Of a stretch of DNA of 64,000 bases, positions 15,001 to 62,989 are shown piece after piece. Below the pieces are notes generated by a model, which ran no database searches, had not been told where the DNA came from, and was given only the letters and a program-made list of their open reading frames with translations. Origin of the DNA: Blasia pusilla (taxonomy: Eukaryota). Position 1 is the stretch's first letter; every line of letters begins with the position of its first letter. The position numbers were made by a program, and so were the translations under genes. The stretch is from assembly GCA_050084515.1 (NCBI GenBank), contig CM114271.1:14694001-14758000 (forward strand), written 5' to 3'.

Positions 15001-16790
15001 TAAATTGTTCAAAAGTAAGCGGCGTGGGTCTTACTTGAGTATTCAAAGGATCTGATGACCAAGCTCATCATACCTTGGAGGCAAAATCCTTATGCACCGA
15101 CGTGCCAAATCTTCGCTAGACTTTGAAATTCCCACGGATGCCATCTGATCTTGAAGATTCTTGATCCTTGTCAAAAATTTCTCCGCGCTTTCTCCTTCTG
15201 AAAATTTCTCGGACGTAAGCTGATTCTCCAGATCTGAATCCGAGTCTCATTCCTTGTTTCATACTGATTCTTCAAAATGTTCCACGCCTCAGCAACAGTG
15301 GTTGTATGTTGAATGAGAGTCATGACAGAATCAGTTACATTCGTGACAATCGCATATAGAGCATCAACATTTCTGCGTCTCCATGCCAATAATACAACAG
15401 GATCGATGTCCCCAGATGAAGATGAACATGCATAACTCACACTGGCTTGTGGATTTGAATTGACCCCTGTGGCCGTTTCCCAGATCTCAAATGATTCGAG
15501 AACAGTTCTCATTTTGAACTTCCACAACGTATAGTTAGACCCATCTAACTTCCCTTCACCGAGCGGAGGAGGGCGAGCAGGAACTGACGAAGAGGTAGCC
15601 ATCTCTCAAGATTTTGTGCAAACACACTAGATCGCGGATACAAAATCTTTGGAAAACCTCGCTCTCGATACCATATGAGAAAACAGAAAGTGACGAAATC
15701 ACTGAAATCTTTACAAAACTTAGAGATACAAAGTGGCCTAGTCCGTCCGTGCGCTCACAAAAGAGCTTCGATGGAACCTGAACTGGGAGATAACTCGACA
15801 TACGAGAATGCGCTACCGCTACGGCTCCCGACTATTTGACTACTCTGGAAAACTAGGGTTAGATAAACCTAGTAACGCTACTCCGTAAACCCCCTACGTC
15901 ATATTACTATGACTCCTTCGACGTCTAAGTCGGAACCATCGATCTAGGCTTCTCCTCGTACAAGGGGGCCGATCAAACAATGGTGCTCAGAGGAGTGGAT
16001 GTTGAGAATCCAATACTTTTTTTGGACCCCATACACTTTGTAAGGATCAACGAGAACCTTCTCACCCTCTTGTGCCTAGGTCTTGGTGTTTCATCAAATA
16101 TCTTCTTCATTTCAGTCCATCTCAATATGTCATGGCTGGTCACGCAATTGGGCGTTGGACGATTTTCAATCTGTCGATTGAAAAGATGCACAAAATTGGA
16201 TCTTCCTATAAGGATGATTCCTATCTTTATACTGTTGGTGGCCTTGACATGCTAGATTATGCAAAGTTTTAGAATAATATGAATCTCCTTATGATCCACA
16301 CACCACACATGCCACTTTTCCCTTGGTACATTGGCCAGAGACCACACCTACCCCAAGATAGTCACTAATAGTCCATATGATCATGGCTCTAAGAAGGAAC
16401 TTATCTTGGCCTTCAGGAAGAGAACTATCATATGCAAAAACTCCTTTCCAACGTAGTTGTAACTCGTTTATAAGTGGAGCTAAATACACATCTAAGTTAT
16501 GAGAATACACGGACTCCTTACCAGGAATGATCAAAGCCAATTGGAGAAAGAATTTCTTTGTACACAACCATGGTGGAAGATTGTAGTTCACCAAAACAAC
16601 AGGCCAAGTTGACCAAATTGATCTCTTATCCCTAAAAGAATTTACTCCATCTAAAGCGAGCCCTAATCGAAAATTATGAGGCTCGTTCATGAACTCTAGC
16701 CAACGCTCATCTATATCTTTCTATTGTCGACAATCTCCAGCATGACGCACCTTACCATCGCTACTTCTGATTTCTCATATCCATTTCATT
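9066..16790 (-). pseudogene. CACTA (En/Spm) TnpD-like transposase, intron-containing, split by Copia-2
   Basis: NFRLGLALDGVN...WPVVLVNYNLPPW (16289-16690), LPYWK/DLLIRHTLDIMH, LKSHDHHIFMQQLLP, FPPSFFEVMTHLLVHLVEE, LKNYVRSRARPYGCMAEGY, FPSQVEQVFY. These match the Transposase_21/DUF4218/DUF4216-type blocks. Confidence 0.9.
11083..16015 (-). mobile_element. Ty1/copia LTR retrotransposon (Copia-2), full-length but frameshifted
   Basis: LTRs at 15674-16015 (5') and 11083-11553 (3'); CTTTT TSD at 11078-11082 and 16016-16020; PBS (rc tggtatcgagagc) at 15661-15673; poly-G PPT at ~11554. Gag, CFYCGKLGHLIKDC, WVLDSGAS, integrase (IHVDLCG, PQQNGVVERRNR), RT LYVDDL, RNase H FCDSDW. Confidence 0.96.
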
Positions 16791-26836: not shown

Positions 26837-29296
26837 ATGCGGACAACGCTTTGGATTGGCTTTGGGCTAAGAAAAAGGCCTCACTCGGCCAGTAAAAGGT
26901 CCGTGATTTATTGACGGGTCACAGTGATTTATATCTTCCACTTACGGTTGGGGACTCAGACTGTACGAGCATGAGGAGTTCTTACGGTAGTTGCAAAAAT
27001 AGTTGCGTTGAGATCCATTTAACTAAGTTGTTTTTTGAACTTCAACTATCCTAACTACTTCCATTTGTCCCGCTTGGTCTTTGACTCGAACAAGAATGGC
27101 TTGCGATGAATAATTAGCAATGCATCAATGGGAGCTTTTCCCCAATTAAATTAGCCACAATTATGCACACAAATCTGTTGGTATGCCTCCAAATGAAATT
27201 TTGGTGGATTTCCTCGTTGTGGTGCTTGCTGCTAAGACAACCAAAGTGAATCAAGGAGAAATTGTGATTTGAAGGGTCTAGGAACATCATCTTGTTTATC
27301 CACAATATTGTGTGGCACCTCCCTACCTACGGACTTATTTCTGGTTCCTTCCGTGTTCATTTTTTCATACTAGTCTTTCAGGCGTAGGACGAGTGTGGAC
27401 TTAATGATTAAGAGTGGTGTGTCCCTAGGACCTATTTCCAAAACTTATGTGAAATTGAGATATGATTAGAAATATTTTTGTTAGCACGTGGTATGGCTGG
27501 CTACTCACTGTAGTATGATTTTTTGCAAAATATATGAGACACTCTATCCTGAACATCAGTAGCGTGCGGGTCTTGGAGAAACTTTTCTCCAAGACCAGCA
27601 GACTCTCTTAGGGATTAGTCGTCTAACGGTGATAGCTATGAGGAAATCGATTTGAAAATGTCGTAGATCAAGAAGTTGTGCATGATGTTAAAGAAACAAT
27701 GCAAAAATTGGGCATTTAAGCACGAAGTTGTGACCGTTTCGATGGGGCTTCCAAAGCCAACTGGTGAAGAAAGGAGCAATTTCAAAGTTGTCATATGAAA
27801 TTCATCCTCTAAGGAAAAGTTCAAAACAAGTCTAGGCTATCCGAAAACTCTCGAAGACCATGTGTTTGAATCAGATGTGATTTTATTCACATCGAACATG
27901 TATTTGATTAGTACTTAAAGAATAATATTATAAAGTAATAAACACTCGAAATCTTACCTACGAGCCCGTAGAATCTGCATTCTTTGTAATGCCAATTGGT
28001 AAAATTTAAGAATTTCGGATTCGACCAACAAAATTTTGGAAAAAATTCAACCCAAAAGATTCAATTTCTTTGTAAAACATTGAAAATAACCAGCAAGTAT
28101 TTGGAAATTTCCAAGTGTCCAAAAAAACCAATGAGCTTGGAAAAATCTATGCGCTTCTTGAACCTTGATAGCTTTAGAGTTGGAAATAAATCACCCTCAC
28201 TCTGATTTGGAGAGAGTTGTCAAAGGAAGTTAGTGAAAGAAGTGGAGGAAACTATATCAGCCTAAGCAGTGGCCTTAAAGAATGATTCCATCTAGGCCTC
28301 ATTCAACATTATTGCTCAGGACTTGATCCCATGCGTGCCAGTTTTGGAAACAATATAAGGTTGCTAATTTTTCTATGCCCAAAACTTTTGGGCACAGAAT
28401 TGGCCCAACATTTTCATGACCCTAATTTAACGAAAAAGTGAAAGTAATTAGTTGAGACCAGTTCTTTTTGCTGAATAGACCATGCCCTATCAATTATATG
28501 TAATATTATTAAAATTAGGATAAAAAAGACCCACTTTACAATAGGAAGTGATGGAAGTTAATTTAAACCAGTATCGGAGATATCCATCTTGATTGTAAGC
28601 ACTTGAGATGTCAAAAATTTGTTTTACCAACATAGGTTGCCACCCATCCCCACATATCAACTGGAGGGTTTGTACTTGTAATGATGATTTCCAATTCAAA
28701 TTTCTAATTAATCACAAGGCACATAATTTTATCATTATCACGTAAAGCGCGTGCCCATGGAATCAACTCCTAAGGGGTTGGTCCCATGGACACGCGTAGT
28801 GGTCGCGCCAACCTATTTTCTGAACCCAAAGTGATTATCCAACAATTTATGGAGGGGAAAAATTGGTCTTTGCTTATTACTTTTGGTCCTTCATTAAATA
28901 AGGTCGCCAATATGTTGGCGACATTAAATCATATATCCTAAATCCCAAACACATGGGATCTCATGCGTGCAGGGTCTGGGTGGACATGGAAGGTCACCAA
29001 TTGTTTTGCGTCTAAAAGTCTTGGGTGCATAATTGGCCCAATGTCATGATGACTTTATTTAACGGAGGACCAAAAGTAAATAGGAGAAAATTAGGTTGCT
29101 ACAATCTCCGTGCGTGTCCATGAGAGGTCCGGTGTCTTGGCAACCCCTAGTGATACATATCTAGTGGTTATTACGTAAATATGACGTATTTTCTTGGTTT
29201 TTCCGTCGAAACATAATTTGATCAGGCCTTTAGTCTCCAAAATATAAATCACTAATATAATCCTTGTGCTATGCACGGGTGAAAGGGCACGTCATC

Positions 29297-29664
29297 TGTC
29301 ATGACCATATGGATTATGTCATAGAGTATAGTGTGCTAGTAGAGGCCAGACCTTATGTAGGGCCCTAGTGGCTAGGTAGAGATACGGTTTCATACATAGG
29401 GTTGGGGGTTACTCAATTGAGGGTGACTTTTCCCATAGGGCCTGCTCTTAGGTTGGAGGATATAGTGTGGAGTGCACTAAAAGAATAGTTAGTTCTTTGA
29501 GTTGAGCGTGTTGCGTTGGGAGTTAGCCTTGGTAGTGAGTAGAGCTCTTGGCTATCGTGGTTCCCGCAAGCTTCGACCTGGATTCTCCCATTGTGGAGTG
29601 GGTTTGGCTCGATTGTATGTGATTCTATATGTGTTTAATGATAGTAGTTCTTTCACGGATTTCA
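29297..29664 (+). repeat. Terminal repeat segment B (368 bp) of the DNMT/PHD gypsy family
   Basis: TG...CA ends; highly similar to 55077-55435 and to the reverse complement of 57191-57558; followed by ctcaaagaacta and ~1.4 kb of unassigned sequence (putative leader). Confidence 0.9.
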
Positions 29665-30916
29665 CTCAAAGAACTAGAGTAGATCGATGGTAGCTTCGAT
29701 TGTGGATCAGTAGGATCTCGTTAGCTCTGATTGTGTACTCAGCCGTGGATGTTTGTGGCTTGTGGATTATGTTGGAAGTGGAAATCTGGTACGTGGTTGG
29801 TTGGGAAAGAAGCATCTTGCTGAGAGCTTTCCAACGCGCTTTAGATCGCCGGATTTCGTCAAGGGAGTCGGAAGTTATCAAGGATTGAAGATTCTGGTTC
29901 GTGTTTGACGGTTTTCTGATGTGGAGAGCTTGGAGTGCGGAAGCTCTGTTGAAGTTCATCCAGATTGGGTGAGAGGTTCATGTTGCTACTTGTATTGTGA
30001 TCTCATGTGAAGCTATCTTCTTGAGTGTGTGGAGCGTTGCGGATATTTGCTTGCATGAATATGGGCGGAAGCGCTGTCGGATTTGCGATTCTGGAGGTGT
30101 ATGGACAACAAGTTTGTCTGATTTTTAGCTCGGAGTACAGAGCTTGGTTATAGCTTATTTTTTGTGGAGAGATAGCTATGGTGGTCAATTGAATTGTGGT
30201 TGAAACAAATTCAATTTTGGTTGAAGATTTGTGGAGTAATTTTTGATCAAAATTTTGCGGACTAGCTCAAGGTCTGGCTATGGTGGACAATAGATCGGAG
30301 GGGCTGGTTGGTTGGTGATTCGTATGTTGTTGGAGACGCCTATCCCATTGGGGGCGCCCTGGTTGAGCCTCTCTCGATAGCGAAGCATGGCAAAGCGTGG
30401 CATGTCTCGAGCATTTTGAGGCTTCAAGGCAACTCGTGGTAGCTCGGGGTGAGTGGGCGTAAGAGGCGGAGTAAGGAGCAAGGAGCAAGCAAGCAAGGGC
30501 GTGAGGTAGCTTTTGCAAGATTTGTGATTTGAGTGTTGCATAATTGGTCACCCATCTTTGGGCTATTCTGCCTAGAAGATGCTTAACTGCTAAGTTCTTA
30601 ACTATGCCAATGTACACACTCGTGTAGCTCATTTGGTGCTGTTCGGAGATCTGTTAGGCACTTTATGCATCTCAAGTTTTTGGTTGATGGACCTCTAGCG
30701 CATAGTACGGTATAGCCTCTCCATGCAGGTGATAATTTCAGGTGCTGCGAGTCTGACTAGCACGTCATCGACCCGCGATGGAGTAGCTATTGCGTTAGAA
30801 TTGTGTGGTGGGTTCTGTGGATTCAGGGGGCGCCACGTTTGGTGGATTGTGTTACCTTGCTTTCCATTTGCAATTGGAGGGTTGTCGTTGGACTTCTTGT
30901 GTTTGGATCCCCTCCA

Positions 30917-32612
30917 TCATTGCTTCTTGCTTGCGCGCCCATTGTTAGGGTTGACGCTGATTTCCATAGTAGTGTTACTCCTGTGTGCTACCGATATTGA
31001 GGCTGGTGTGATGACCAGTAGACCGTGGGAGGCTTCTTGTGGTGATGACAGGTTAGGTTGCCTACACCCATAGCTAGTAGAGCTAGAATAGTACAGCGAC
31101 ATCGACATCGACGTCACTTGGTTACTTAGTGGTGGTAATTTGGTGGTGGTGCGGCATCGGCGTTGGTCGAATTCCGATATCACCTTGCTCTCTTCGGCCA
31201 TCTGGTCCGCCATCACCTTCATCAATCCCAACCTTTGGACATAAAAGACCGGATCGTTTAAGTTTGGACCTAAAGGTCCCGCGGAAAGATTTTTGGTTGG
31301 AACATCTTCATGTCTGGGACTCGGCACTTCGGGAGTCGCAAATTCCACCTTTGGCTCTCCGTCCGTCATTGATTCGTCTCTCTGCTTCTTTGCTTTGACT
31401 CGCGGTTTCCTTGGTTCTTCGCCTTTGGTCGCCATTGCGAGTCATCGCTTTCTCAGATCTCCTCCTCGCCTCTTGCGTTCCTCCTCGGCGTCGCGGTCTT
31501 CCGTCTACCTTGAGTTCCCCCAAACGTCCAGATCTTCAACGATCCCAAGTTCACGCTCATCAAGGACAAGCTCTGATACAACGTATCATGCGCCTACTCT
31601 CCTTGAACGTTAATCTTGTTTGTTGCGGAAGCGTGCGTTCAGTAGGTCACGCTCTCAACGCTGATCTACATCCAAACACACACTTCGGTTAGTCGGGTCT
31701 TGGATCAATCAGCGGGATTACTTTCCGAGTTCTCGTCTCGGGCTGTCATCAAGCTGCCCCTTCCTAGTTTCGCGGTTTACAACACGGGAAAATCTCGAAA
31801 GACTTGGGACAGACTTTCTGGTCGGTTCAGGAACCTGAAACGGCGTTTCGCGCCTAGCGATTCCAACAGTTCGATGGAAATCCAATGAGTTCCTCACCAA
31901 GACTCGCACAAAGTGAATCTCAGGTTGGGATCCAAGTGTGGCGTACAAAGTCCACTCCCTTGGATCAGGTTTGGGTTTCAGGTTTCCGCGCCAAACTCCC
32001 GTTCATCCCGTGCCTCTGAAACGCCGTTTGGCGCCCAAAGTGGGGATTCGTTTCCCCAGACATCTCGGAGAAGGTTCTCCCTTACTAGTACTTCTGGGGA
32101 TCTCTAGGGGCCCCCTACATTTAGGGAAAGACACCCGGGCCTCTCCAATTGGGCCTCAACCCGATTGCTCTCTCAATTGTTTTCGGCCAATATCTCAGCT
32201 TGTACTTATGAGTTTGCTAAGATCTTTGTGCGTTGGAAGCGTCTCAAGATCAACTTTCCAACGCGCCCTTACTTGTCTCGAACGCATCTTTGAGCTCAAC
32301 GTTATGGTCCTAAACAAAGTTAGATTCTCCCAAACGCTAGTCGTGTTCCAAACTGGTTCTCACCTCTTTGGCAACCAACCTCCCAAGACTCAACTCATCT
32401 CAAGTCTTGGCTCGAGTTTGGTATAGGTTTCCTGGTCGCGACCACTAACGCGTGAAACGCACAACTCTGTTCCGCGTTTCGTCTCTTAGACTTTTCCAAG
32501 AGACTCTTCCAAACGCCTCTCCAAAGCGCAAACCTTGCAGCGTGAGTTCCTTTGAGTTCTAATGTTTCGCTTGGCGCCTATTTGGTGTTGTTTGGTTATG
32601 AGGGTTGCAACA
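30917..32612 (-). mobile_element. LTR retrotransposon 5' fragment (likely gypsy): LTR, Met-PBS and start of gag
   Basis: ~1 kb LTR-like segment at 31584-32612 ending gggttgcaaca; PBS-like gctctgatacaa at 31570-31581; basic gag-like ORF 30917-31435; abuts Copia-3 RT exactly after IYGLK. Confidence 0.6.
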
Positions 32613-35600
32613 GCTTTAGTCCATAGATACATTTTAGAAGACGGCATACTTTACCCTTAGTTTGAAAACCGGGAGGTGGTTTCATGTAGATCTCCTCCTC
32701 TAAGTCTCCATTGAGGAAAGCCGTTTTTACATCAATGAGCTTGACTTCCCAACCATGATAGGCGGCCAATGCTTATGAAATTTTGATGGAGACAAACTTG
32801 GAAATTGGTGTGAATGTCTCCTTGAAGTCAAGTCCTTCAACTTGACTGAAGCCTTGCGCCACAAGTCTAGCTTTGTACTTGAGAACTTGATTATCTTGAC
32901 CTGTCTTAGTTTTATACACCCACTTACTTCCAATAACCTTCCTGTCTAGGGGCAGATCGGCCATTTTCCAAGTCTGATTTGACTCATGAGACTTGAGCTC
33001 TTCATTCATAGCTTTCTCCCATTCCTCCCAATCAACACTCTCTTGTGCCTCTTTTAAAGATGTAGGGTCAGATTCATGAATATCTGTACCAGAACATATG
33101 ACGACATTGAATTGAGAGCAGAAATCCATGAGTTGTTGTTGCTGACTTTGTGTGTTTGGATCAAGAATTCTTGATCAAATCCAAATCTCACACGCTTCTT
33201 GGTTGTCCTGTTGGACCTTCGAGCTGATTCTGGCTCCTCAACAGTATTGTCTCAGGAGTAGTAACCAGATTGGCAACTGACTCCTCAAACATAGAAGTTG
33301 GAACTTGATTTTCATTGAAAATGACATCCCTGCTCTTGATAATCTTCTTGGTGGTAAGGTTACACATTCGATATCCCTTGCAATCTGGCTGAAGGCCAAG
33401 ATGTATGCACTTCAAAGATCTAGGATCCAGTTTCTTTCTCTGCTCCTTAGGGATAAGAACAAAAGCTTCAACACCAAACACCCGAATCATAGACACATTA
33501 GGTTGTGTTCTTGACCATGCCTCTTCAGGGGTTTTGCCTGCAAGAGCTCTGGTAGGACTAAGATTACGCAGGATATTTGCATACCTGGTTGCCTCAAACC
33601 AATATCCTTTGCTTAACTTGGAGTCACCAAGCATGCAATTGGTCTTGGTGACCAACGTACGATTTAATCTCTCTGCAACTCTGTTCTGTTGAGGACTATC
33701 CCTTGCTGAAGATTGAAGTGTAATCCCTTTTTCAACAAGATACCTGTCAAACTCTTGGTTGAAGAATTCTCCACCTCCGTCAGATCTGAAGGTTTTGACT
33801 TTCTTCCCAGTTTGAGTTTCTGCCCAATCTGCAAATGCTTTGAACTTCTGTAGAACATCTCTCTTCAGTTACAGAGGAAACACAAAAGATTTCCTTGTAC
33901 AATCGTTGGCGAAAGAGACATAGTATAAGGCATCTCCAAGGGACTTCATCTCGAAAGGACCACATACGTCACTATGGATTAGGCCAAGCCTGGGCTCAAA
34001 CCTGGACTTCGTTGTTGCAGGAAAACTTCTCTTGCTGTGTTTTCCCTTAATGCAGAATTCACAGAAGAATTCAGAAGGAACAGTGAACTTTGTACTTGTG
34101 GTAACTTGTTGAAGTTGCCTCATACCTTCCGCACTTAGATGCCCCAACCTTCGATGCCAAAGTAGGAAAGTTGACTCAATTTGGGCAAGGTTTGCCTTGA
34201 CCTTCATGGTACAAGTTCCATCTAGATGGTAAAGAGATCCACATGGGGACAAGCGAGAATAAGCCACCACTTGACCTTTCTGGTTGAGGAAAGAATACAC
34301 CTCGTTTTCATCAAGTCTAACGTTGATGCCATCATTTTTCAGTTGCGTAGTAGCAATCAAATTGTGGAAATTCTCATGATATAAGACATATGTTAGTTTG
34401 ATAACATTGATGTGAGTCCCAACTTTCGTGTAGATGGTAGCACTCCCACTCATTAATATGCTACAGAGAACTCCATTGGCAATAGAGATAGTGAATGGAG
34501 TTATACTATGTATCTCATCAAGCATTCGTGCCTCTCCACACATGTGTCTGGACGAACCACCGTCAATAATCCATATATCCGATGCCTTTTGGATAGAAGA
34601 TATGGGCAGCATGTTGGATTCTAAAGAATCACTCTCATTTAGAGTCGTGATAGTATTGACTGATGGGTGTGCATGGCCTTTTCCCTTTAACTTTCGCTTC
34701 TTGATCTCTTCCTTCCTCTCTGCCTTAAACTTGATTATCTTAAAACAATCAAAAAAATTTATTTGCCCGGTCTTTTCACAAAATGTGCAGATGAGGTGAG
34801 ATAGAACCTTCTTCTTCTTCTTCACCTTCTCCTTCTCCTTCTCCTTACATCTGATGTGAAGTTGATTTGATCAGATTCAAACTCACATAGACGCTGGTTA
34901 GTGTTCTCCTCGCGTTGGATCACACCAATGGCATACTCCATGGTTAAAGTAGAAGATGCTCTCTCAGATATCATGTTTAATACAAAAGCATACTTCCTAC
35001 CAAGGGTCACACAAAGAGCACTTACTTTTTGATTTTCATCCATAAGTAAGCCTCGAGAAATAAGGGCATCAAGATAAATATTTACTAGAGCAATATGATC
35101 AGAGATGGGGGTCTCACCATTATGCCTAAGGTTTCCTAGCTTTTGCCAATTTCTAAGTAAGTTAGTACTGGAAGTTGTAGCATAAACTTTCTTCAAAGCC
35201 TCCCACATCTCATAAGCTTTATCATACGATCGAGACCTTTCTTTACATGGTTTCGATATGTTGGAAACCATGTATCTAATGGCCACATTGTTATATCTAT
35301 TCCAATCCTTCATTGTCATCTCAGATGGAGTCGGGATGTCTACGATCAGATTCAGTAGGCATTTTCCAGCCAATAGAATTTTGACGTCGTAAGAAAATGA
35401 TTGACCAGCAGAAATATATCCTTGTACAAAGTCAGAGCTAGCATCAACTAGACCATCCATGATTTCAGCTTGTACACAATCAACAAATCAGTTCCTATCT
35501 CTATTGTTAAATTAGAGCCCTACCATGATGTGACTCTTCTTACTATCTAAGAGATACTAAGAAGGATTCTACACAGTCACACCTTGCACTCACACTACAG

Positions 35601-43200: not shown

Positions 43201-46200
43201 ATATCTCATAAATCCACGAATCACCAATCTTGTCCACTTTGCTTGTCCATGTGACCCATTCCTGTTTCGTAAGAGCGTGATTGGTGCACCAATATTCAAA
43301 CACAAACGATGCGGAAGAAGTCCAAAAGGGAAGCATGTGTTCAAGAATTTAGTTGCGTAGATATGACTCATCCCCTCTTTTGGAATAGAGTCGATGTTGA
43401 GGTAAATATGCTCATGTGCACAATATATAATGAATTAGTAAGAAAAAGTAATATTAGTGCTAAAACTTCCCAAAAACATATATAGAGGTACCGAGAAGAG
43501 AAGTAAAAAGGATTACCTCTCCATGAAATCGAGTCATAACGTCTGTATTTATGTCGTCAACATCTTTATTTCTTAGATTCAAAATAGTCGTATCTCTTAA
43601 GAAATCAATGTCATGGAATCGGCTAGGAAAATTGCCATAGATCAAATCAATAAGATCAAATATTTTGTTACTATTTGTAACAATTTCAAATGGTAATTGT
43701 ATAAAGTCTTCTCCCATATGAGGGTGCAAAGATACACGACCCTCTCCCACTTCCAATAACCAATCAGCAAAAGTTTTTTGTTCATCACGCAAATGACCAT
43801 CCAACCTTTGAACTCGCATGTTTGTTTTCAACTTCATGACCTTTACATTATACCAAAGAGACAACCTCTTTATGGTGGCTTGGATGATTTGCGGCCCATC
43901 CCCATGACAAACAACACGTAACACTTGATGAAAATCACCACCAAATACCATAAGTTTTCCACCGAATGGTAAGTGCCGTAAATCATCTGAAACAACTCTC
44001 ATACTATCATGCAAAGTTTGATTCACAACCTCAAAGGCATGACGATGAGCCATAGGTGCCTCGTCCCATATAATGAGCATCGCCTCACGGATTAAGCGCG
44101 CCCCATCACAATGGATCGATAAACTACCAACAAAAAGGGATGAAAATTAGAAGTTGTAATAATTGGAGTAATAAAATTTGACATTGTATTAACACAATTG
44201 AAGCTAATTAAAACAACTTATGATACTTAGTTGCAAGTAGAGCTTTCATGAAGATTAATGGGGATCTTGAAGCGCAAATGAGCAATACGTTATCCGTCTA
44301 ACAATAGAGCAGCTATACCAGCTGATCATCAACCAAAGCTATACCTCTTGCACTCCTTACACTTGCAAGGAGAAGATTATATATATGTAAAAAAATCCAG
44401 TTCCACCTGGACCATCGTTGAAAAAACCTTTTGGAGATGGGGGAGCATTCGCGCATATTTGATCAAGCTCATCATGTATAGCATCCCAGATAATGCATTG
44501 TCCTTCGTTTAGACATGCTTCTCCCAATTGCATTTGCTCAAATAATTCTTTTGTATCATATGATAGCTCTTGTTCCTCCAAATATGAGTGTGAACAAAGG
44601 CTTTCGAAATTAGCTTGGGGCATATGTGGAAAGTCAGATAGTCTCTTTCCTTGATCTTGTAAATAATAATCAACTTCCAATAATGTTGTATTCATAATAA
44701 CATCATCAACGCGAAGCTTAGGAATTCCTATTTTTGTAATGGAAGAGTTCCAAAAAAGATCCAAATCATGGTTAATATGTTGGATTCTCAATATAAGATA
44801 CAATTAGGAAGAAATTTTTTTATGTAAGGAGTGGTAGTATTGAATTCTCACCTGACGTCATTCATATAAAAGATCTTTTACCGATAGAACTAAGAACCGG
44901 CTCCATAGTGTAGCAGGTGTAGCAGGTGTTGTAAGCTAGAATAATTGCAAATAGACGTCAAAGTGAAGAACCCGCACGGATGATAGAAGCTTCTCCGAAG
45001 CAAGAAAACAACTCCGTATCATCCTCAAGAAGTTCCGATTGGATAGGAGCCTCCTTGAATGTTGGACACAATCCTATGAACAGTTCTCAAGCATTGGTAT
45101 GTAGTTGCTCCTCGAACGTGATGGAGGAGTAATCTCAACCAATGACGTTCTCCTTCACCTATGAAGAAGTGAAATAAATTAGCTCATCTATTATCGAATG
45201 TACAAAATTATGTGCTTACCGCCACTGATATATAAAAGAAAATTAAATATATACAAAACACTTTTTAGAATTTACCTGGATAAGTAAGGTATAAGAGGCC
45301 GATGGGATGACCCATTTTTTTATCCTACGAATCCACTTCTTGTTACTCCAATGATAATATGAAGGAAAATCTATATATAGATATTATCGAGTGATGGAGT
45401 CATATGTATTGGTTGCAAACCATTGGGTCAGAGTTGTCTCTCTATTTTGTTGCAAAACATCTTGAGGAAAAATGATGTAAACTATTTTTTGTTCAGGAAG
45501 ATGAATTGCTAATCGCACAATACATGGAAGTTTAGCATGTAGACTAAACTTGAACAAACGCCAACATGTCTCTGAAGAAGATATATATCTGGAGAACAGA
45601 ATATGAATCTTCAGAGTAATTAATATACCCTTAAAGTAAGTATAAATAACATGGTGGATGAGAAATAGAATATAATTCATGAGAGTAATTAATTAGCAAA
45701 AACATACTTTGCATCAAGGTATGATGTAGTCTCGTCAACAATGTCATTTGCATTGGATGTATCCATATTCTTTGACAATTTAAAGGACACGGCACCATAC
45801 ACCTTATAAACATATTTGTTTAAGTATTTAACGGCAAACACACTACTTGTGATTTCCAAGTTAATGTGACAATAAAAAATGGTGGATAGCATTGGATTGT
45901 AGGGCACAATCCAACGAGTGTCCAATGAATGTTCAGACTTGATTATTGCCCTCCCATTCTCCAAACTATAAAAACATAGTAAGAAATCATAAATACATCA
46001 ACGTCATATGCCCTATAGTAATAAATATAAGCAAAGATAAAAGAATCCTTATCTGCGAAAAATTGGATAACCGTCTTCCGTCTCTACAGTGTTGGCCGCA
46101 AAAGCTTTAAGATAGTCTTTTGTATATTTTTTTGTTTCCTTATCCATATATGGAGCATTAGGATTTAATGGTCCACATGGCCCATGAACCATGCGATTAG

Positions 46201-49269: not shown

Positions 49270-52200
49270 GTAGGATATCACAGGATAAAAAAACTCCATT
49301 ATGAACAAAGAAATTTTTCTCAATCAACACATCTCCGATACGAGTTTTGACAGATAGACAAGCACCATAGAGTTCACCTTTTTGGTTGTTAGCCGCTCGT
49401 AGTATCCATCCATGCCCTGTATCAATTGGCCACATCCCTTTGCGTATACACTTTGCGACATGATGTTGAACTCCAAACCATGATCAACAAGAGCCAAAAT
49501 TGACTCTTGAAGATAGCCAAGTCAAACTCTAGCCTCTGTCGTTGCACGCGCCCAATATGGCCGAGACTAGTGTCCACCATTGTGCCTTTCTTCACCTTGT
49601 TCTGTCAAGGCTTCTCCTACTCTCGCCTCTTCTCCTTATAAGTCAAGCTTTTGTCCAAAAACTTGGCAAACCTCTTCATCTTCTTCTTCTCTTATGTTAG
49701 TATCCAATGCGCTCACCATCACCATATTTGCACTCATCTGCCTTTTCCTTTTGATCACATCTATGATCAACTCATGAAAGTCACGTTTGGCTATGCCTAA
49801 GACTTCCCTAAAAGGAAACTCTATTTTCGCACCCAAAATCCTCTCCTCAAGAATCTCCTTCAAATTCGTGCTTATCTCTATATCAGATTGCAACTTGTAT
49901 GTAGGAGTTTTACCCTTGGTTTTCTTAGAAGACCTCAATTCTTTCTCCTTAATTCCACCTTCTTTCATATGAGAATCCATCATAAATTCAGATGTAGAAG
50001 GCCCTTCTTCTCTTGATGGTTGCGCCTCTGGTTGCCCTTTCCTTCTTGCGATCCTAGCTCTTCTTGTTGCTTCTTCAAGATCAACACCATCATTGTCGCA
50101 TCTCCTATTCTCCTCCATACTAGCATCTTGCCAACTACATTTTTCTCTTGTGCTAGGTATGGTTTAACACACCCAACTTCCACTGGATCATCCAATCCTG
50201 TTAGATGACGGATAGTCTCAGCCCCTCGTAGCATCACTTCTTGAGGAAATTTTAATGATTCACTTCTAGCTATAGATATAATAGGCGCTTCTATTTTTAT
50301 TGCAAAGATATCATAATCTAATGCTGTAGTGGCAACTCCCACTTGACCTCTCACTAAGCCTATCATTCCTCCTCTACCAAAGTTCGTATTCAACGACATA
50401 TCAGTCTGCGTTGAATGAATCTTTGAAGTTTACTATTCCATTCCTAAGAGCTTCTGAAAACTCATCACATTCTCGACGTTGATGCTCAACACTATCACAC
50501 CATATACATCTTCTCACAAAGTTCCTACTTGTCGAAGGAGCACCAACACTAGGATTCCTATCAAGTTTAAATTCAGCCATTTCTACTCTCAACTCTCTCA
50601 AACCTTTCACCAACTCATCAATGGCAAAATCTTCAAGCTTTGTTGACATGGGCTTAGGCAATGGATTTAAAATTGATACCTCAAACTTGAATAGTGCACT
50701 TCTACCTCTACTTTGACTTTACTTTGTGAGGATAACAACAACTTCTTCCACTTTCTTCCAATTAGTGTTGACACCTCCTTCTTTGGTCTTGTCCGCCAAT
50801 ATTATGAAAAGCTTGTCCTCCAAATTCTCATTAGCCGCCTCAAGGAATATCTCGGTTTTCCTCAAGTCTAGAGTTTCCCTTTCAGAAGAAGAAAGTTGAA
50901 AAAACCGCTTCTCAAACTCGGGCTACAATTCATTTGGAGTCATTCCCTTCCAGGGACGTTGCTCTATCCATTCTAGAAAACTTTTCTTAGTTGCACGATC
51001 CACATCATTATCGAAGATTCGCCTTTCAGAAATTGCTCATACTCCTCCCACGAGGTTGGATATTCTACTCTCAACTACTTTACTTGACTCCGGATCTTTG
51101 GTATTACAGCTAACTCAAAACTTGACACCATATCACCTTCGGATACACGGTTTACCTCAATCTCACAAACGTACTCTCGAATGTACTTGGTCATGTTTTT
51201 CCCATCAAATCTCCCCAACTTCTTTATAATCGTTTGTAGAGTCCTTTTTGATCTTTGCTCTCCTATGTGAACTCCTCTTTGCTCACTCAACAATGGTGTC
51301 AAAGTTTGGAGAAGATCCTCAACTCTCTTAGTTCCCATTGATGAAGTACTATCAAAAGTAGTCATCTTGATAAGACTCCAACTTGCAAACACAATCTACC
51401 GCCTCAAAGAGCTCTCAGTGGAAGCATCATGTGTCGTATCGAGAGTCTTTCTTCGGACCTTCTAGCTGCAGCAGACGTGGTTGATGCAAGTCACACTCTA
51501 TAAGAAGTTCTCATTTGTCACTAAAAAATTATTATGTAAACCCTCCATTCTCTCACGACATGAATCACGAATGGTAGTGTCGAGGCGATCACTTCTTCAT
51601 AAAATGTGACTATGAAATTCCTAACTATGAAGTCCATGTAAACTACTTTACATTTGTACACAAGAAAAATAACACAACTGGTGTTAAACCCTACTCGAGA
51701 AAGCCTATTGACGTCCATAGATTGCTATATAAGAACATACAAAGTACAATCCCATGTTCTTCCGTATGTGACTGTAGGAAAAATCACCCGACTTGGAGAT
51801 TGTATGACTTGGTTCATGAATTCCTTCCCAAAGTGATAAACTAGATAGCGAGTGAACTAGTGCCTATCTACAAAGAGAATCTTGACGTGGTACGGGTTAA
51901 GAAAAGGAAAATCGGACACAACTCGTGCTCCATTCATATCCATATTTGATAAACATTTTCTATTCTCCTCTAGAATGGATTTGGCGGAGTTGATTTCCCA
52001 AGAGAGGTAATCCACTCTCATTGGGAAAATAAAAATCCAAACCATCCACTATTTCTAGTATGACTAAACTCCCATAAGGTGACAAGTCTCTCATCTCCAC
52101 ACATACCACACACTATAATCCTCTCAAAAAGTATATCATGTTATTCTCAAGTTAATCCACTCTCATTGGAAGAGCAAGCAATCCCAAAGCCATCCGCTCA

Positions 52201-55076: not shown

Positions 55077-55555
55077 TGTCATGACCATACGGATTATGTC
55101 ATAGAGTATAGGGTGCTAGTAGAGGCCATACCTTATGTAGGGCTGTAGTGTCTAGGTAGAGATGCGGTTTCATACATAGGGTTGGGGGTTACTCCGTTGA
55201 GGGTGAATTTTCCAGTAGGGCCCGCTCTTAGGTTGGAGGATATACTGTGGAGTGTACTCAAAGAATTGTTAGTTCTTTGAGTTGAGCCTGTTGCGTTAGG
55301 AGTTAGCCTTGGTAGTGAGTAGAGCTCTTGGTTATGGTGGTTCCCGCAAGCTTCAATCTGGATTTTCCCATCATGAAGTGGGTTTGGCTCAATTGTATGT
55401 GATTCTATATGTGTTTTATGACAGTAGGTCTTTCACTCAAAGAACTAAAGTTGTGGTACACTTGTGTTTGTGGATGCTCTCGTCTATGTTATGTATGTAT
55501 GTGAGTATGATATATCAGCGATGTATGTTGTATGATGATGTGGATTCGCACGCCA
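55077..55555 (+). mobile_element. Miniature B-PBS-A derivative of the DNMT/PHD gypsy family
   Basis: B at 55077-55435, ctcaaagaacta at 55436-55447, A at 55452-55555; flanks cagg / tagg (4-bp TSD with one C>T). Confidence 0.8.
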
Positions 55556-57084
55556 TAGGCCTCCTATGTTTATAAGGGGAAGTCCCTTGTTCCTCGAAGA
55601 GGATCTCATTTTTGGAGCTCCCACAGGATTTGGGAAATACCCTTTTTCTGATAACGCAGGGTGTTCCCCCACTGGTAGGGAGTCTTTTATTGCATCCTCG
55701 AAGTCGGGAGTGTGCTCGGGTGTAAGTCTCTCACCCCAAGGAGAAAATTTGTGGAAGTGGGATTTCTTCCACTTACTCAAATGCATACAGTCCTCTTGGG
55801 AAATCTGTGACCATTTGGAACTCTCCAACACTTGGAGATCACCTGACTTTACACCATAGTGCTTTTTTGATGATGTGGTCTTGGTAACGCTTTTTCCCTT
55901 CCCTTATGTTGACTTTTTCCTTGTGATCCTGGTTGCCATTCTATCTCATTCTTTTCTGTTGCTTGCTTGCTATGCTTGTAGGGTTGAGTCGTTGTTGGCT
56001 TAAAAGGAAGGGACGGGGAGCCGTTTGCGGCCTATCGAGCTGAAGCTGAAGTCGAACCTGAAGAAGCCTCTCGAGCAAAACCTGAAGTCAAACCTGAAGG
56101 AGCAGAAGTTGAAGTCAAACCTTTAGCTAGCTAGCGTTGTTGCAGAGTGGAGGTGTTGAAGTCGAGCGATATTCAAAGATATGTCGAATACATGCATTAT
56201 GGCAGGTAGATTGACACGTTTAGTAGAGCTACTTGAAAGCTTACCCTTATCGACTACAATCGTAAAGCTACTTGAATAATACATTAGTGTATAGTAGATC
56301 TGCAAGATCCCTAACACAACCTACTATATAGTTCTTATCGACTAAAGAAATGAACCTTAGTAGCTTAAGCCTCTCTGGCTTATGTAATACGAAACGCATT
56401 TACCTCTTCCAAGTAACGCCTCAAAGTGCATGCACAGAATGGAGTCTGTCAATTGGATGGAAGCAATAAAATTTTTTTTTGGTAAGCTCAAAACCCTAAG
56501 CACGATATATGACAACTCTTTGAGAAATGGGAGGGTGTCTACATCGACGGATATCCCTTGTCAGATCGTAACTGTTGGGTGGTAAAAAATTCAAAAAAAG
56601 CCGTGAGACCACTTTGGTGCAGATCTATGGAGGATCCATGAAAATCAAAAACCATAAGACTCACATGGGAAATACGCGTCCCAAGCTCCCCTCGAAACAC
56701 GTGCCGCAAAGGAAGGGAATCACATGAGAGGAACGCCCGAAATGGAATAAAGCATACTTTCAATTGTGTAGAGTGCCACCAGTCAATAACGCGAGGGTTT
56801 GCACTACAAGAGTGCATTGGCACTTAATAGATAGATTAGAGAGTGCTGCCTTGATTTTCAAACATCTCTATGCTTGACATGTGGCAACCGGGCAGCAAGA
56901 AAATGTTTTCCATTCTACGGACAATAATGAGTTGCACACTAGTATTATCAAAAGAGAATGGGGTTTGGTAACCCCTTCCTCCTTCTTTGACACTTAAAAC
57001 ATTTTGGCCTCTTGCGGTGTTGATACTTGTAGTGTTTTCCATGTGGCTTAACATGTTTAGGTATAATAGATGATTTAAGAGATG

Positions 57085-57664
57085 TGTCGTGTGAATCCAC
57101 ATCATCATACAACATACATCGCTCATATACCATACTCACATACATACATAACATAGACGAGAGCATCCACAAACACAAGTGTACCACAATTGAAATCCGT
57201 GAAAGACCTACTGTCATAAAATACATATAGAATCACATACAATCGAGCCAAACCCACTCCACGATGGGAGAATCTAGGTCAAAGCTTGCGGGAACCACCA
57301 TAGCCAAGAGCTCTACTCACTACCAAGGCTAACTCCCAACGCAACAGGCTCAACTCAAAGAACTAATTGTTCTTTGAGTGCACTCCACACTATATCGTCC
57401 AACCTAAGAGCGGGCCCTATTGGAAAAATCACCCTCAACTGAGTAACCCCCAACCCTATGTATGAAACCGCATCTCTACCTAGACATTGCGGCCCTACAT
57501 AAGGTATGGCCTCTACTAGCACACTATACTCTACGACATAATCCGTATGGTCATGACAACTGTCGTGCAAATCCACATCGTCATACAACATACATCGCTG
57601 ATATACCATACTCACATACATACATAACATAGACGAGAGCATCCACAAACACAAGTGTACTACA
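57085..57664 (-). repeat. Composite 3' terminus A(57561-57664)-gt-B(57191-57558)-at-A(57085-57188)
   Basis: Two 104-bp A copies flank one 368-bp B copy; every segment begins TG and ends CA. Confidence 0.92.
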
Positions 57665-57839
57665 ACTTGCTCCCCTAACTGGCGGTTAGGTCCCTCTAAC
57701 TCCCAAGTAGCCCTATACATCTACTACATGCTATACACCTTCTTGGGTGCACGAATCAAAAGGCCGGGTGCTAGGTTGCCCCATCGTTAGTTGCATATCT
57801 GTAATCCATATCAAGCAAAGATCAATTCATCAACCTCTC

Positions 57840-58133
57840 CTAAGTACATCGAGGACAAACCCACCTTCCAGTAGGAACAACATCCACATGTGGAGTCAAA
57901 CACATCATGTGCCAACCCCTAGAACACCGATCACACACCAACATACGGGCTTCGTTACCAGCAGACCCACACAACATGCACCTCAAGCTAGCACGTATCA
58001 TGGCTATGCTTGGGTCAACAGTACCATCCACATTTGGAAGATGACATGGCGCACAATTACGCACATGGTCCTTCCAAACAACTCCATCACGACCCTCCAA
58101 CATGAGAACTCCAGAAGCTAACACCTCGCGCAC
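57840..58133 (-). CDS. Integrase C-terminus ending in a PHD finger
   Basis: CMLC-x11-CDRC-x4-H-x2-C...WVCPRC, a complete C4-H-C3 pattern directly after the integrase C-terminal region. Confidence 0.9.
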   Translation of the reverse strand: MREVLASGVLMLEGRDGVVWKDHVRNCAPCHLPNVDGTVDPSIAMIRASLRCMLCGSAGNEARMLVCDRCSRGWHMMCLTPHVDVVPTGRWVCPRCT

Positions 58134-61100
58134 TCATAAAATAGTGCGGCCTGCCGTCACATCCAACGTTGTCGGTGCAATCTGCTGCAAATAGACATAG
58201 TCCCCCACATGGAACCTACAAATTGATGGTTGATAACTTCCACTCCGAATGGTTGCATACCGCAACGTATCCCTGTGTTAAGCAATGGCAAGATTCTCAA
58301 AGGCTATTGGCATAACTCTCCGAAAGAGCTCTGCCCGCTGAGAACACACTCTCATCCACATCTCTTGGTCATTAAGGTTCACCACCTCACTAGACTCCCA
58401 ACGAATTGCTGTTGGCAAGTCTGGATATCGGCCGTATAATAGAAAATAAGGTGAGAAGGAAGCCAAGGATGCTTGGCGACTGAACCTATACCCCATGGCT
58501 AAACATGGCAACTGAATATCCCAGTCTCCAAGATGCCCCTTTTGTAGGCCATACTTGCGCAATGCCCTTTTCACCGTCTGAACCACATGCTCAGCCAAAC
58601 CATCCGCCTCTGGATGATCTCAAGATGTGGTCCGATGATCAATCAACGCCTTGTCACACAAGACTTGAAACTCACCCTGAAACTCTGTACCTTGGTCGGT
58701 CAACACTTCAGCTGGTGCACCAAAATTACTAAGCACTCTATCAAGAAATGAATATGCCGTTCCCTCACTTGCCTTATCAGGTAATGCCACCAACTCAATC
58801 CACTTGGAGAAGTGCTCCACCATCACCAACACATATTGATGATGTCGTATAGTCAACGGTAACGGTCCCGCAAAGTCCATACTCGAACGGTAACCCAACC
58901 CCATAATAGGCAAGGGGTGTAACTGTGATGTAGGGGCATTGAATGATGCCCTCACCCGGTCACAAACCATACAACATGACACCAACTGCTGCATCTGAGT
59001 ATGCATGCCACGCCACCAATATTGACCAAGGAGTAAGCCATACGTACGCTTTACCCCAAAATGTCCCAACTCCTCATGGGCATGTCGCACAATGCGCTCT
59101 CTCTGAGCCAAATGCAGCACTACTCGTACTCTACCATCCTCCCACACACAGAGAATCTGTGTTCCCTCCAATCGATACCTCTTAGCACGATGAAGAACAT
59201 GGTCTCGCTCCTTGGCTCTCACTATGCCTGGCACCCTACTGGTCCGTAGGAACTCCAACACCAATGCATCATCATGAATATCACGCTGATCCGTACCACC
59301 ATCTCCATCCTTAGGATGTGAAGGCTGGCCATCTACCCTCTGACTAGAGTAAGATGTCATGTGGTCCTCCATACTAGAGTCCACCCCTAACCAACATAAA
59401 AAGGCGAATGCATGCCAACCTGGCACCATCTCCTCATCAACCTCGTCATGCCATCTAGCCCCAGTTGCATCCTCTTGGCTAGTACATGGGTTCCTACTCA
59501 ACCCATCAACATCAAGGTTGGCAACTCCAGGTCTATGTACCACATGGAAGTCATACTCCTGTAAGATAAGAGCCCACCGTGCAAGCTTCCTTGTGAGCTT
59601 GTCAGACTCCATCAACCACTTGAGCGGCTGGTGATTAGTAACAAGGTAAACTGTGTGCCAAACAAGTAACACCTAAAGTGTGCCACAACCCACACTAGTG
59701 CCAAGCACTCTCCCTCATATGAATTGTAGCGCGACTCCGCTGCATTATTCGAACGACTTGCATAGGCCACCACAAACTCCATGTGCTCATCATCATGTTG
59801 TGTCAACACCGCTCCAAGTCCCAACCTACTCCAATCAGTATGTAATTGAAATGGGCGCCCTCTGATAGGTCTCCTCAAGATAGGCGCCGCCACCAACTAG
59901 GCCTTGAGCTCCATAAAAGCTCTCTCCTGATCATCTCCCCAGTGCCACTCCTGATCTGATTTCAACAATTGGTTCAAAGGCTTTGCGATAGCACTAAATC
60001 CCTTCACATACCTCCGATAGTAGTTCGCCAATCCCATGAATGCCCGAACTCTACTCACATCTATCGGACGAGGAATAAGTGCAATAGCCTCCACCTTTGC
60101 TTGATGAACTCCCAAACCACCTGGATAGATCACATGACCCAAATACTCAACATCCTCATGGAAGAACTTACACTTTCCTGGATGCAAACGTAGACCATGA
60201 GCTTTCAACCGCTCAAACACCATCTGCAAATGTATCTGATGCTCCTCCACCGTGTTACTGAACACCAACATATCATCAATGTAACACCGAACAAAATCCA
60301 ACCCTGCTAGGATCCTGTCCATCACTCTCTGAAACTCGGCAGATGCATTCTTCAACCCCAAAGGGTAAGAATTTCCACTAGTACAAACAATCCTTGCCAT
60401 GAGAGTTGACACCCCAAAATGTTGTCTTGGCCTTGTCACTCTCTCGAATCGGCAACTGATGATATCCTGCCCGAAGATCCAAAGTACTGAAAATCTTTGC
60501 CTGTGCGACCACATCAAAGATCTCCTCAAGTGTAGGCATGGATTACCTATCAACCTTGGTGTGCCGATTGATAGGACGGTAATCTCCACACATCCGCCTA
60601 TCCGTGTAGTTGCCATGCATTTCCTTTTTAGCAGGCATGAGAGTGGTTGATGCATACTCTCCATGCGACAACTCCACTAATCCAGCCTCCAAAAGGTCCA
60701 ACGTCCTACTCTGAATCAGATCCCTCTCCATATCACTATATCGGTAGGGACGACAGAAGATTGGTGTATCACTAGCCAAATCAATCCGTATACCGGGTCC
60801 AACCAAAGCACCCAAGTCCTTCATGCTAAAGGCAAAACAACTCCTATAAGCACGTAGGAACTGTGTCAAGCGTTGTTTCTCACCTCTCATAAGCTTGGGC
60901 CCAAGTAATGGCTCCCAAGTCTCCTCCACTGGCACACTAGAGAGAGAGGACGATGCCATTTGCTGCTACGCAACCCCCTCACAAGATAGTACACCCTTAG
61001 CTACACCATCATCTGAGCAAATAACTCCTCCAGCAGCATGAGCAACCAACTCCACATGCCCAGCCATTACATCCCATTTACTCCAAGGATGCAAAATACT

Positions 61101-61209
61101 ACTCTCCTCGCCCCCAGCCGATACCTCTACCATCTCGGTAGCCATCGAGCTCATCACAAGGGGTGGAAGACCCACAAACATAGTCCGAAGTCCACGCTGC
61201 TCGGCCATA

Positions 61210-62160
61210 CCAAGACTCAAAATCCAAGTCAAACAATTCAGGTCCATGGCGTGATCCAACACATGACGTCGTGAAGCCTTAGAAATGGAAGCAACCGCTG
61301 TCACACCAGTAGCAAATCCCATCGCACGCTCTCTCTCATGAGCATTAGGCTCCACTAACTGTCGCACATGAGAATCCCATACAAGCCCATGAACACCTTC
61401 CCTGTAGGCATATGACGAGGAAAAACTCACAAATGTGGGTAGTGCCATCCTAGGCTGGCCCACACGGTTCACCACTTCCATGGGTGACCGATCAATAACC
61501 CTCACCACTTGAGAAAGTCGCCCAGTATCCAAGATACTATCCATTGTAAGGCAAGGATCCCACTGCACTGCATCATATGCTCGATGTAGAACCTCCCTAG
61601 GCAACAAGTTTGTCCACCACAAGCGTGGACGATGTGCACGCGAGCCAACTCGCGCTGCATCCAACAACACTGTTGGTCCAATCCAAGACCGCACCTCATG
61701 AACACTCGCCATCATCCGGGTCCGAGTGTCACCCAACAATGGAACATTCTCCAGAATGTAAGCTGGAGCACATGCCTGATGAACCTGAAGATGTCGTAAC
61801 ACCCGTAACATCTCCCAAAACAATCAAGACCTAGGATCGTGTAATCCCTCAGCACGACCAACACGTGTATGACCCTAACATGGCCATCCAACAATCACCA
61901 AATCCACAGGACCAACCCTCTCAAGGTCCTTTGCCCCCAACAATGCAATGTGTGAAGTCAAAGCACCCTGGTACCCACGAATAGCTGATGGCGGCAACAA
62001 CTCACGATATCTCCGCATCAACTGACCGATATGTCGAGATGAGACTCTCTAGGCCGTCTCATCTCGCTCCACATACATGTATCTCCGCACAGGAATACCG
62101 GTCTGCAACACTGCAGCCAAACCAGTGCTAATCCCACAAAAGAGATCTAACACACAAATG
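61210..62160 (-). pseudogene. DNMT3-like C5 cytosine methyltransferase domain (single frame, three point stops)
   Basis: ICVLDLFCGISTG, YMYVERD, GPVDLVIVGWPC*G, LFWEMLR, YILENV, LLDAARVGSRAHRPRLWWTNL, ERERAMGF, RRHVLDHAM. Confidence 0.93.
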
Positions 62161-62989
62161 CCCTTCGGCGGATACTGCCATACAATGGGTTTAGTATCCA
62201 AAGGGAATACCCCAACAAGACCAGAAATAGGAGTCCACCATGGGGCCTCATCTTCCTTGCGAGGTATAACAACCTCACACCAAGCCTCCTGCACTAGGCG
62301 ATCAGCCTCTTGCCATAGTGCACCGCCTAAACTCCAAAGTGGCACATCCAACAATGAGGATGCCACTACTGCAAAACTAGGGACCTCCTCTACCTCCGGG
62401 GGTTGGTATTTTGACAGGAGAGAGTAAGAGAGGAGAGGAAGAGAGGAAGAGAGGAGAGTCTCTCTTAAAAAAAAAAGGCCAAATCCGCCTCCTCTCTTCA
62501 AAACTTTTTGACATATTTGAAATTTTTGTTTGCTTTAAAATTCAGGAAATCTTTAGAAGAGAGTATTTAGTGGTCCACATTTGGCCCTAAGAAAACCTCC
62601 TCTTTCTTGGGGGCGAGAAAAAAGGAGACATCATAAGACCACCCTAAACATTTTTCCATCACTCTCCATGTGAGCCTAAGTTTCTTAACATTCCCTGTCT
62701 CGGTCAACAAAAAGCAGTGCCCTTGGTATTTTTGTTGGAGGACCACCCGGATGGGTACCTCTCTTTTTGCAGGTATTTTTTCCTGCATTATGGCCTCCCC
62801 TAAATTTCCCCATAACCAACTTTCTGTCGGTTATGAATGGTGTCTGCTCAAGATCAACTTTCTGAAATGTGAACAAATCAGATCCTAAGGCTGAGAAACC
62901 GAGAAGCTGCACCCCTCCCAACCCGTAAGAAAGCTCACCATAAGAAAGGAAAAGATTTTTAGAAGTGATTTTCTTCCATCCTGCACCCA

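Follow-up and report, generated by a model that had tools for sequence, protein, structure and literature searches.

Split terminal repeats on a DDE-integrase gypsy element of Blasia pusilla point to integration at a junction inside the LTR

How does a retroelement that encodes a DDE integrase come to carry split terminal repeats, with one repeat, B, alone at its left end and the order A-B-A at its right? This question is raised by the window, a 64,000-nt stretch of Blasia pusilla contig CM114271.1 (assembly GCA_050084515.1, positions 14,694,001 to 14,758,000; all positions below are those of the window). A sequence-only reading had noticed that, after a purine tract (PPT), the 3' end of an element reads A-gt-B-at-A with CA-nn-TG at both joints, and we found exactly this on the minus strand. 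There, the PPT (57676-57667) and a GT dinucleotide (together 57665-57676) precede A1, the PPT-proximal repeat A and putative start of U3 (57561-57664). A GT spacer follows (57559-57560), which is the centre of CACGACA-GC-TGTCATG, the candidate integrase attachment site, and then the 368-bp 3' repeat B (57191-57558), which would hold the rest of U3, R and U5. An AT spacer (57189-57190), presumably the joint of two cDNA ends, leads into A2, a 104-bp copy of A (57085-57188) whose final CACGACA is the right integration end. A1 and A2 are 95% identical, and the window's spacers, GT at A|B and AT at B|A, are decayed forms of the family majority, GC and GT, respectively. The outer ends, TGTCATG and CACGACA, form inverted repeats at six of seven positions, in agreement with the earlier description.

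On the same strand, upstream of the PPT, lie a PHD finger at the end of pol (57843-57980, limits approximate; PF00628, E 3.7e-9 on the full copy L035), the end of RNase H with the DDE integrase (H2C2 and rve, 58620-59672, with stops nearby that mark a dead copy), a reverse transcriptase with a broken frame (59897-60676, PF00078) and a broken C5 cytosine methyltransferase region (60966-62397; PF00145 on L035, weak DNMT3B/3A matches in the PDB). The window element is 92-93% identical to L035 over the stretch matching PHD, and its similarity to full copies ends at 62397. A second piece, on the plus strand and thus in the reverse orientation to 57085-62397, begins with B alone (29297-29664), as had been reported, with TGTCATG as the left integration end. 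This B contains a candidate self-primer (29490-29502, B positions 194-206) that pairs in folds with the primer-binding site (PBS, 29664-29676) directly after B; the 5' leader follows (29677-31168), and similarity breaks off at 31168. The same letters, CATC, a candidate target-site duplication (TSD), flank both pieces (29293-29296, plus strand; 57081-57084, minus strand), which suggests that both ends of a single insertion are present. On this view, 29297-31168 and 57085-62397 are probably halves split by an inversion of about 30 kb. The gag-protease part is missing between the halves, and the 5' end that the window's element lacks does not lie within 9 kb past the window. The pairing of 29297 with 57191 is suggested by the CATC flanks alone; variants in B do not confirm it, the two having two common variants, which is typical of unrelated copies. 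A third copy, at 55077-55555 (plus strand), had been read as a product of a 1-LTR circle. Its order stood, with 12 nt of PBS and then AAGT between B and A, but it is a solo B-A remnant with no internal region and its own TSD (CAGG/TAGG), not a full circle product. Solo B-A units also occur elsewhere in the family.

The window holds further transposon remnants. A distant relative is preserved in its methyltransferase region at 5731-5940, 6533-6598 and 6748-7487, with 64-69% DNA identity; one short piece of this 5731-7487 remnant reaches 82%, and it represents a third family of the methylase gypsy lineage. Copia-type pol fragments lie at 1562-3383, 13819-15064 and 33188-35487, the last of them in the interval that separates the gypsy halves. 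Other remnants are a Helitron-like PIF1 helicase fragment (43460-44146), DUF4218 (10295-10930), a zinc finger with DUF4371 (19191-20114) and DUF4100 (49636-50163).

The layout in the window is that of its family. We counted at least 860 copies by exact 5' B+PBS ends in a genome-wide motif search, and full copies, of about 9-10 kb, have the order B...internal...PPT-A-B-A. Searching the 390-Mb genome with the 592-bp A-B-A unit gave 2833 candidates, the best 40 of which matched nearly end to end at 95-96% identity, and an exact A|B-B|A motif had 389 genome matches, against none for the reversed control. At the 30 ABA loci fetched, a GGGGGGCGAG-type purine tract precedes A and unique flanking sequence starts where CACGACA, or a decayed form of it, ends. 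An intact 5' B on the same strand was found in 7 of 19 ABA-anchored 10-kb stretches, each time without a preceding A. A PPT+A query returned 30 loci, of which 24 read A-B-A, four stop after A, one has leader between B and the last A, one runs from B into the start of A, and none ends at B. Complementarily, 34 5' ends were traced 7-12 kb downstream; 16 had no 3' end in the stretch, and the other 18 gave 13 ABA-type ends, three with PPT-A only, one truncated end and one lone A.

The sequence-only reading had named canonical AB...AB copies, and a majority with ordinary LTRs, as the things to look for. Sought in three ways, neither turned up: a B+leader query had A upstream in 0 of 30 loci, canonical copies numbered none at the 30 PPT-A loci, and none appeared among the 860 5' ends by exact motif, a search blind to the roughly one in four copies with a mutation in the 6-base prefix. 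An A-end motif preceded 6 of the 860 exact 5' B+PBS ends; two of these were chance flanks, three lay after PPT-A, and one belonged to a mirror-form copy, BAB...A. At similar stringency, B...ABA thus stands at 389 against a single BAB...A. Short-read contigs labelled as two other organisms likewise contain the B|A joint of the main family. Between 5' and 3' B copies, divergence was 4.4% within and 5.6% between elements (16 elements), a small gap. A reading of the PPT-A-B-PBS copies as tandem dimers fails for one of them, which is a single insertion with 159 nt of leader in the B|A joint and an exact TSD; the coordinates of a second point the same way, and two others are rearranged. Rare forms comprise A-B-A-b-A (L086:742-1721) and a 1-kb tandem duplication of the 3' end (L010:367-2092).

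The earlier proposal that integration uses the internal A|B junction gained support from the insertion ends. Across 36 insertions (11 single-locus, 16 paired, one variant and eight solos, leaving out copies with a broken or missing end), a 4-bp TSD at the start of B and the end of A matched exactly in 19 and with no more than one mismatch in 34, and one of the two exceptions was a mis-picked end, the proper end matching at three of four letters. Registers of 3, 5 and 6 bp were exact in 0 of 36, and mismatched pairs were exact in 0.5% of cases. The same ends are common to B...ABA, B...A, BAB...A and solo copies, and the mirror-form copy (L181) carries an exact TSD. The NCGN target preference described for Phygy in the part of that source covered here (PMC6317226) was not evident in the 36 TSDs. 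Fifteen of the 36 TSDs had one mismatch, a transition in 11 of the 15; this decay is faster than that inside the repeats, perhaps owing to methylated flanks.

By Pfam, the domains upstream of the PPT run C5 methyltransferase, reverse transcriptase (RT), RNase H (RH), H2C2, rve and PHD. That the integrase is of the DDE type, as had been claimed, is supported by the H2C2 and rve domains and by a D-D(34)-E triad in 11 of the 12 frames matching the pattern. In copy L035, the best solved relative of RT-RH is the Ty3 RT (E 7e-63), and the methyltransferase matches PF00145 at E 9.5e-7. All 16 PDB matches of the methylase piece are DNMT3A/B, weak at E 0.016-0.05, and this region aligns with that of the Klebsormidium protein P0063. 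Protease had no Pfam match in the copies checked and was seen only via relatives. Among the matches listed, named proteins of Marchantia come closest (71-80%), followed by those of Klebsormidium, Closterium and chlorophytes, with the Klebsormidium proteins 42-44% identical over pol. In a midpoint-rooted FastTree phylogeny of RT-RH (query plus 118 of 120 listed matches), the query fell inside a clade of 84 (support 1.0) that held 68 of the 69 methylase- or PHD-bearing proteins and neither an arthropod nor a chromodomain-bearing match; a narrower clade of 41 (support 0.83) includes the query, Klebsormidium and Closterium. The pol order with a Ty3-type RT, the DDE triad and the TG...CA ends with a 4-bp TSD are those of Ty3/gypsy, and two complete direct LTRs bounded by PBS and PPT were found at none of the 860 5' ends or 30 PPT-A loci. 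The element is gypsy by protein descent and not a canonical LTR element in layout.

Split repeats had been held to be foreign to gypsy elements, a view that must be given up. For KnitGypsy-Dnmt3 of Klebsormidium nitens, the Fig. 4c legend gives a DIRS repeat structure on Gypsy domains, the DIRS layout being defined in Fig. 1e of that paper as A-coding-B-A-B (de Mendoza et al. 2018, PMC5890265). Both elements have a Gypsy pol with a Dnmt3-like methylase domain, DIRS-like split repeats and a place in the same RT-RH clade, and we infer from species and domains that P0063 is a copy of KnitGypsy-Dnmt3. Unlike KnitGypsy-Dnmt3 as described in the parts of that paper covered, the present element sits in a land-plant-type genome at high copy number and has a C-terminal PHD. 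The passages covered in that account contain no TSD, PPT, PBS, attachment site or mechanism. As far as these sources go, the layout is already in print, unexplained, in one figure legend (PMC5890265); the evidence for an internal attachment site, for self-priming and for a remade joint is new. Our search of the open-access literature yielded no account of how DDE elements with split repeats integrate.

The priming sites define a different unit from the integration ends. The PPT adjoins A, not B, and the last 13 bases of the 5' B can pair with B positions 194-206, with all 13 matching in 25 of 30 copies, 12 in four and 11 in one. In the Tf1/sushi group, including moss Tcn1, an LTR self-primer likewise complements a PBS abutting the terminal CA (bioRxiv 2022.12.06.519325, PMC6317226, both consulted in part). 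That group differs, according to the parts covered of the second source, in having ordinary LTRs and chromodomains (PMC6317226), whereas our element shares the LTR-internal PBS complement, bears a PHD instead and groups apart from the chromodomain-bearing matches. Minimum-free-energy and centroid folds both contain the helix of PBS and self-primer, and the whole region folds no better than shuffles (z -1.0). This complementarity suggests self-priming of the minus strand. With a PPT before A and a Tf1-like self-priming site after B, the cDNA should be AB...AB, and the positions of PPT and PBS bear out the earlier statement that together they define the reverse-transcribed LTR as A+B. A PBS-like copy immediately upstream of the self-primer (29477-29502 including the self-primer, B positions 181-206) pairs with it in a hairpin, which could mask the second primer copy within the transcript's 3' B.

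Reads from two RNA-seq runs (1409 and 1827 reads) were overwhelmingly in the orientation expected for sense transcripts from a stranded library. Depth was about 100-270 over PPT-A-B and dropped through the second half of B, and no transcript start site was visible from read placement. Among the RNA joints listed, the B|A joint had no sense and one antisense read. The RNA is supportive only, since the joints listed are the best-supported ones and the reads derive from many copies plus a sister family, the start of whose A' is among the loose ends of the RNA, indicating that the sister family is transcribed as well. At L230:803-1091, four and nine RNA reads return 289 nt within B, which might reflect back-splicing of the RNA or a tandem duplication carried by an expressed copy.

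If the cDNA is AB...AB and insertions start at B and end at A, where does the second A come from? In 102 distinct elements, A1 and A2 had minor variants in common 44 times, against 9.6 +/- 2.9 in shuffles (maximum 23); for non-deamination variants, the figures were 24 and 1.8 (maximum 7). Subfamily marks travel together in the two copies, in eight of eight cases at one site, and no column showed a fixed difference between A1 and A2 across the 102 A-B-A ends. Most B|A joints have the commonest form (69 of 114) and 12 of the 114 differ in length, compared with 5 of 110 A|B joints. The length variants include PBS-side letters (4 and 12 nt), PPT-side letters and inverted filler, and the leader-retaining joints (12, about 83 and 159 nt) all three join at (G)AG, the PPT end. 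Taken from the sequences of integrated copies, this pattern suggests that A2 and the B|A joint are made anew in each cycle.

A sister family, 71-74% identical in pol, has the corresponding layout, PPT-A'(131)-B'(~510)-A'; it is found at L037:3268-4041 and L231-L262, with 5,000-7,000 first-look candidates. Twelve B' matches among the best 40 gave six 5' ends without A', four solos and two A'B'A', and 19 PPT-A' matches among the best 40 led into B' in 16 cases, into flank in two and into an inverted copy in one. The four solos are flanked by 4-bp duplications, one exact and three with one mismatch. The sister junction reads CACGACA-GC-TGTCACG, so that CACGACA-GC-TGTCAYG is common to both families, and B' is otherwise unrelated to B. 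The self-complement differs too, pairing over 13-16 nt in four of six 5' ends and over 8 nt in a fifth. The right end defined by reverse transcription is TTTTA, without the CA that integrase needs, and the sister B|A joint is not CA-nn-TG. As a rare form, L258 has an A' end of the sister family joined to an inverted junction copy, and L037:5796-8364 is a near-perfect palindrome of about 2.5 kb centred on scrambled B-like sequence, with many arms 100% complementary, possibly a foldback or an assembly artefact.

We consider it fairly probable, counting both orders of events together, that the two cDNA ends are joined and that integrase uses the internal A|B junction, whether a circle forms first or joining follows strand transfer. 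The evidence consists of integrated copies, from which circle, cDNA and cleavage are deduced. Transcription would begin within the 5' B and stop within the 3' B. The minus strand may then be self-primed at the PBS after B in the manner of Tf1, which keeps its self-primer on the cDNA, and the plus strand would be primed at the PPT seen before A, giving AB...AB. The right end (...TTTCA) would join the left end (GTTGTGG...) into the B|A joint, whose scars we see in the variants. A staggered cut by the DDE integrase in the palindromic CA-GC-TG would leave a normal retroviral substrate, a 3'-CA with a 2-nt 5' overhang, which inserts with a 4-bp TSD. The copies indicate that the PBS-proximal junction is used nearly always, perhaps because that LTR becomes double-stranded first; B...ABA would be the only product keeping R at both ends of the next transcript. 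The attachment site would thereby have shifted inward, from the termini of the reverse-transcribed LTR to an internal junction, and end joining may precede integration, as a circle, or come after it. The TSDs, the lack of a canonical copy, the variants shared by A1 and A2, the joint scars, the BAB...A copy, the sister family with its motif, own self-complement and CA-less right end, and the sense RNA over PPT-A-B argue for end joining. Against it, the 389:1 asymmetry needs an extra assumption, BAB...A is a single case, and the three to four joints with 83-159 nt of leader are not given by simple end joining of AB...AB. About 90% of copies have a precise B|A joint, which a programmed template switch would explain as readily as host end joining.

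The strongest alternative, which we regard as unlikely, though a real contender, does without end joining or a circle. On linear DNA, the plus strand finishing B would jump back by 1-3 nt of microhomology to PPT/A and recopy A; the left end would come from either a further plus-strand priming event or cleavage at A|B, and integrase would trim a GC dinucleotide from each end. This loop-back accounts directly for the B...ABA asymmetry, predicts A1 = A2 at birth as well, and finds an echo in the joints: in both families, a single A of the PPT end is shared with the normal joint, and the aberrant ones sit at (G)AG. However, it cannot make the BAB...A copy with its perfect TSD except via several later steps, and it requires the choice of two distinct internal sites, with no purine tract before B.

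The circular intermediate of the sequence-only reading, in which one or the other A|B junction of a free and complete 2-LTR circle would be cut open and 1-LTR circles would yield B...A, fared less well and is improbable in this form. Its internal A|B ends were upheld, and all three expected products exist, B...A at 4 of the 30 PPT-A loci. But the two junctions of such a circle do not differ over 104 and 368 bp, and B...ABA and BAB...A should therefore be about equally frequent; the observed 389:1 contradicts a symmetric free circle unless BAB...A copies were selectively removed after insertion. Nor does B...A prove 1-LTR circles, as had been argued, because recombination between A1 and A2 can yield it too. 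Still less probable is transcription of the whole B...ABA, with both A copies and the B|A joint inherited through RNA: most B|A joints are indeed identical, but A1 and A2 are homogenised within elements, sense reads across B|A are absent among the joints listed, and the positions of PPT and PBS are left unexplained.

The repeat layout itself might suggest a tyrosine recombinase, the element's own or one borrowed from a PAT/Ngaro element. PAT/TOC/Kangaroo and Ngaro elements have split direct repeats, A1...B1-A2-B2, and encode such an enzyme (PMC4157794, as far as covered). Our element has the split repeats, but differs in its DDE integrase with intact triad, gypsy RT and TG...CA ends with random 4-bp TSDs, and PF00589 was found neither in 39 reading frames from two full copies nor in the domain lists of near full-length relatives, making this explanation scarcely credible. 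Local rearrangement or an assembly artefact, suggested by the broken and probably inverted copy in the window, can practically be dismissed given hundreds of copies with unique flanks and TSDs, a second family and a B|A joint that recurs in short-read contigs labelled as two other organisms.

The preferred reading, joined cDNA ends cut at the internal A|B junction, has a partial counterpart in retroviruses. There, integrase cleaves the 2-LTR circle junction, which is palindromic with CA..TG (PMC4372172, PMC1180852, PMC1905944, as covered in part). The circle junction was proposed as the precursor in 1984 and dropped once linear DNA proved to be the retroviral substrate (PMC11054761, in the passages covered), and in the same literature, as far as covered, integration from it persists only as a secondary route, in HIV and in foamy virus. 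According to these sources, the retroviral junction is a true LTR-LTR joint with four bases between CA and TG; here, in contrast, the junction has two bases, is inherited inside U3 and serves essentially all insertions.

A broader proposal, quite possible but held more tentatively, is that the methylase- and PHD-bearing gypsy lineage of green plants and algae replicates via an obligate end-joined, circle-type intermediate, with integrase opening the inherited CA-GC-TG; the PAT/Ngaro layout would then have been reached by convergence, without a recombinase, and the linear cDNA ends would go unprocessed. As the junction is defined, the family is transcribed and close relatives exist in the tractable Marchantia, the question of a circle precursor is directly testable. 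If true, this would be the first natural system with circle-junction integration as its main route, and a Ty3 integrase that cuts internally instead of trimming ends would follow. Structure-based LTR finders would miss the whole lineage: tools demanding two matching TG...CA LTRs (PMC6317226, in the part covered) would miss or mis-bound the at least 860 copies described here, together with the sister family.
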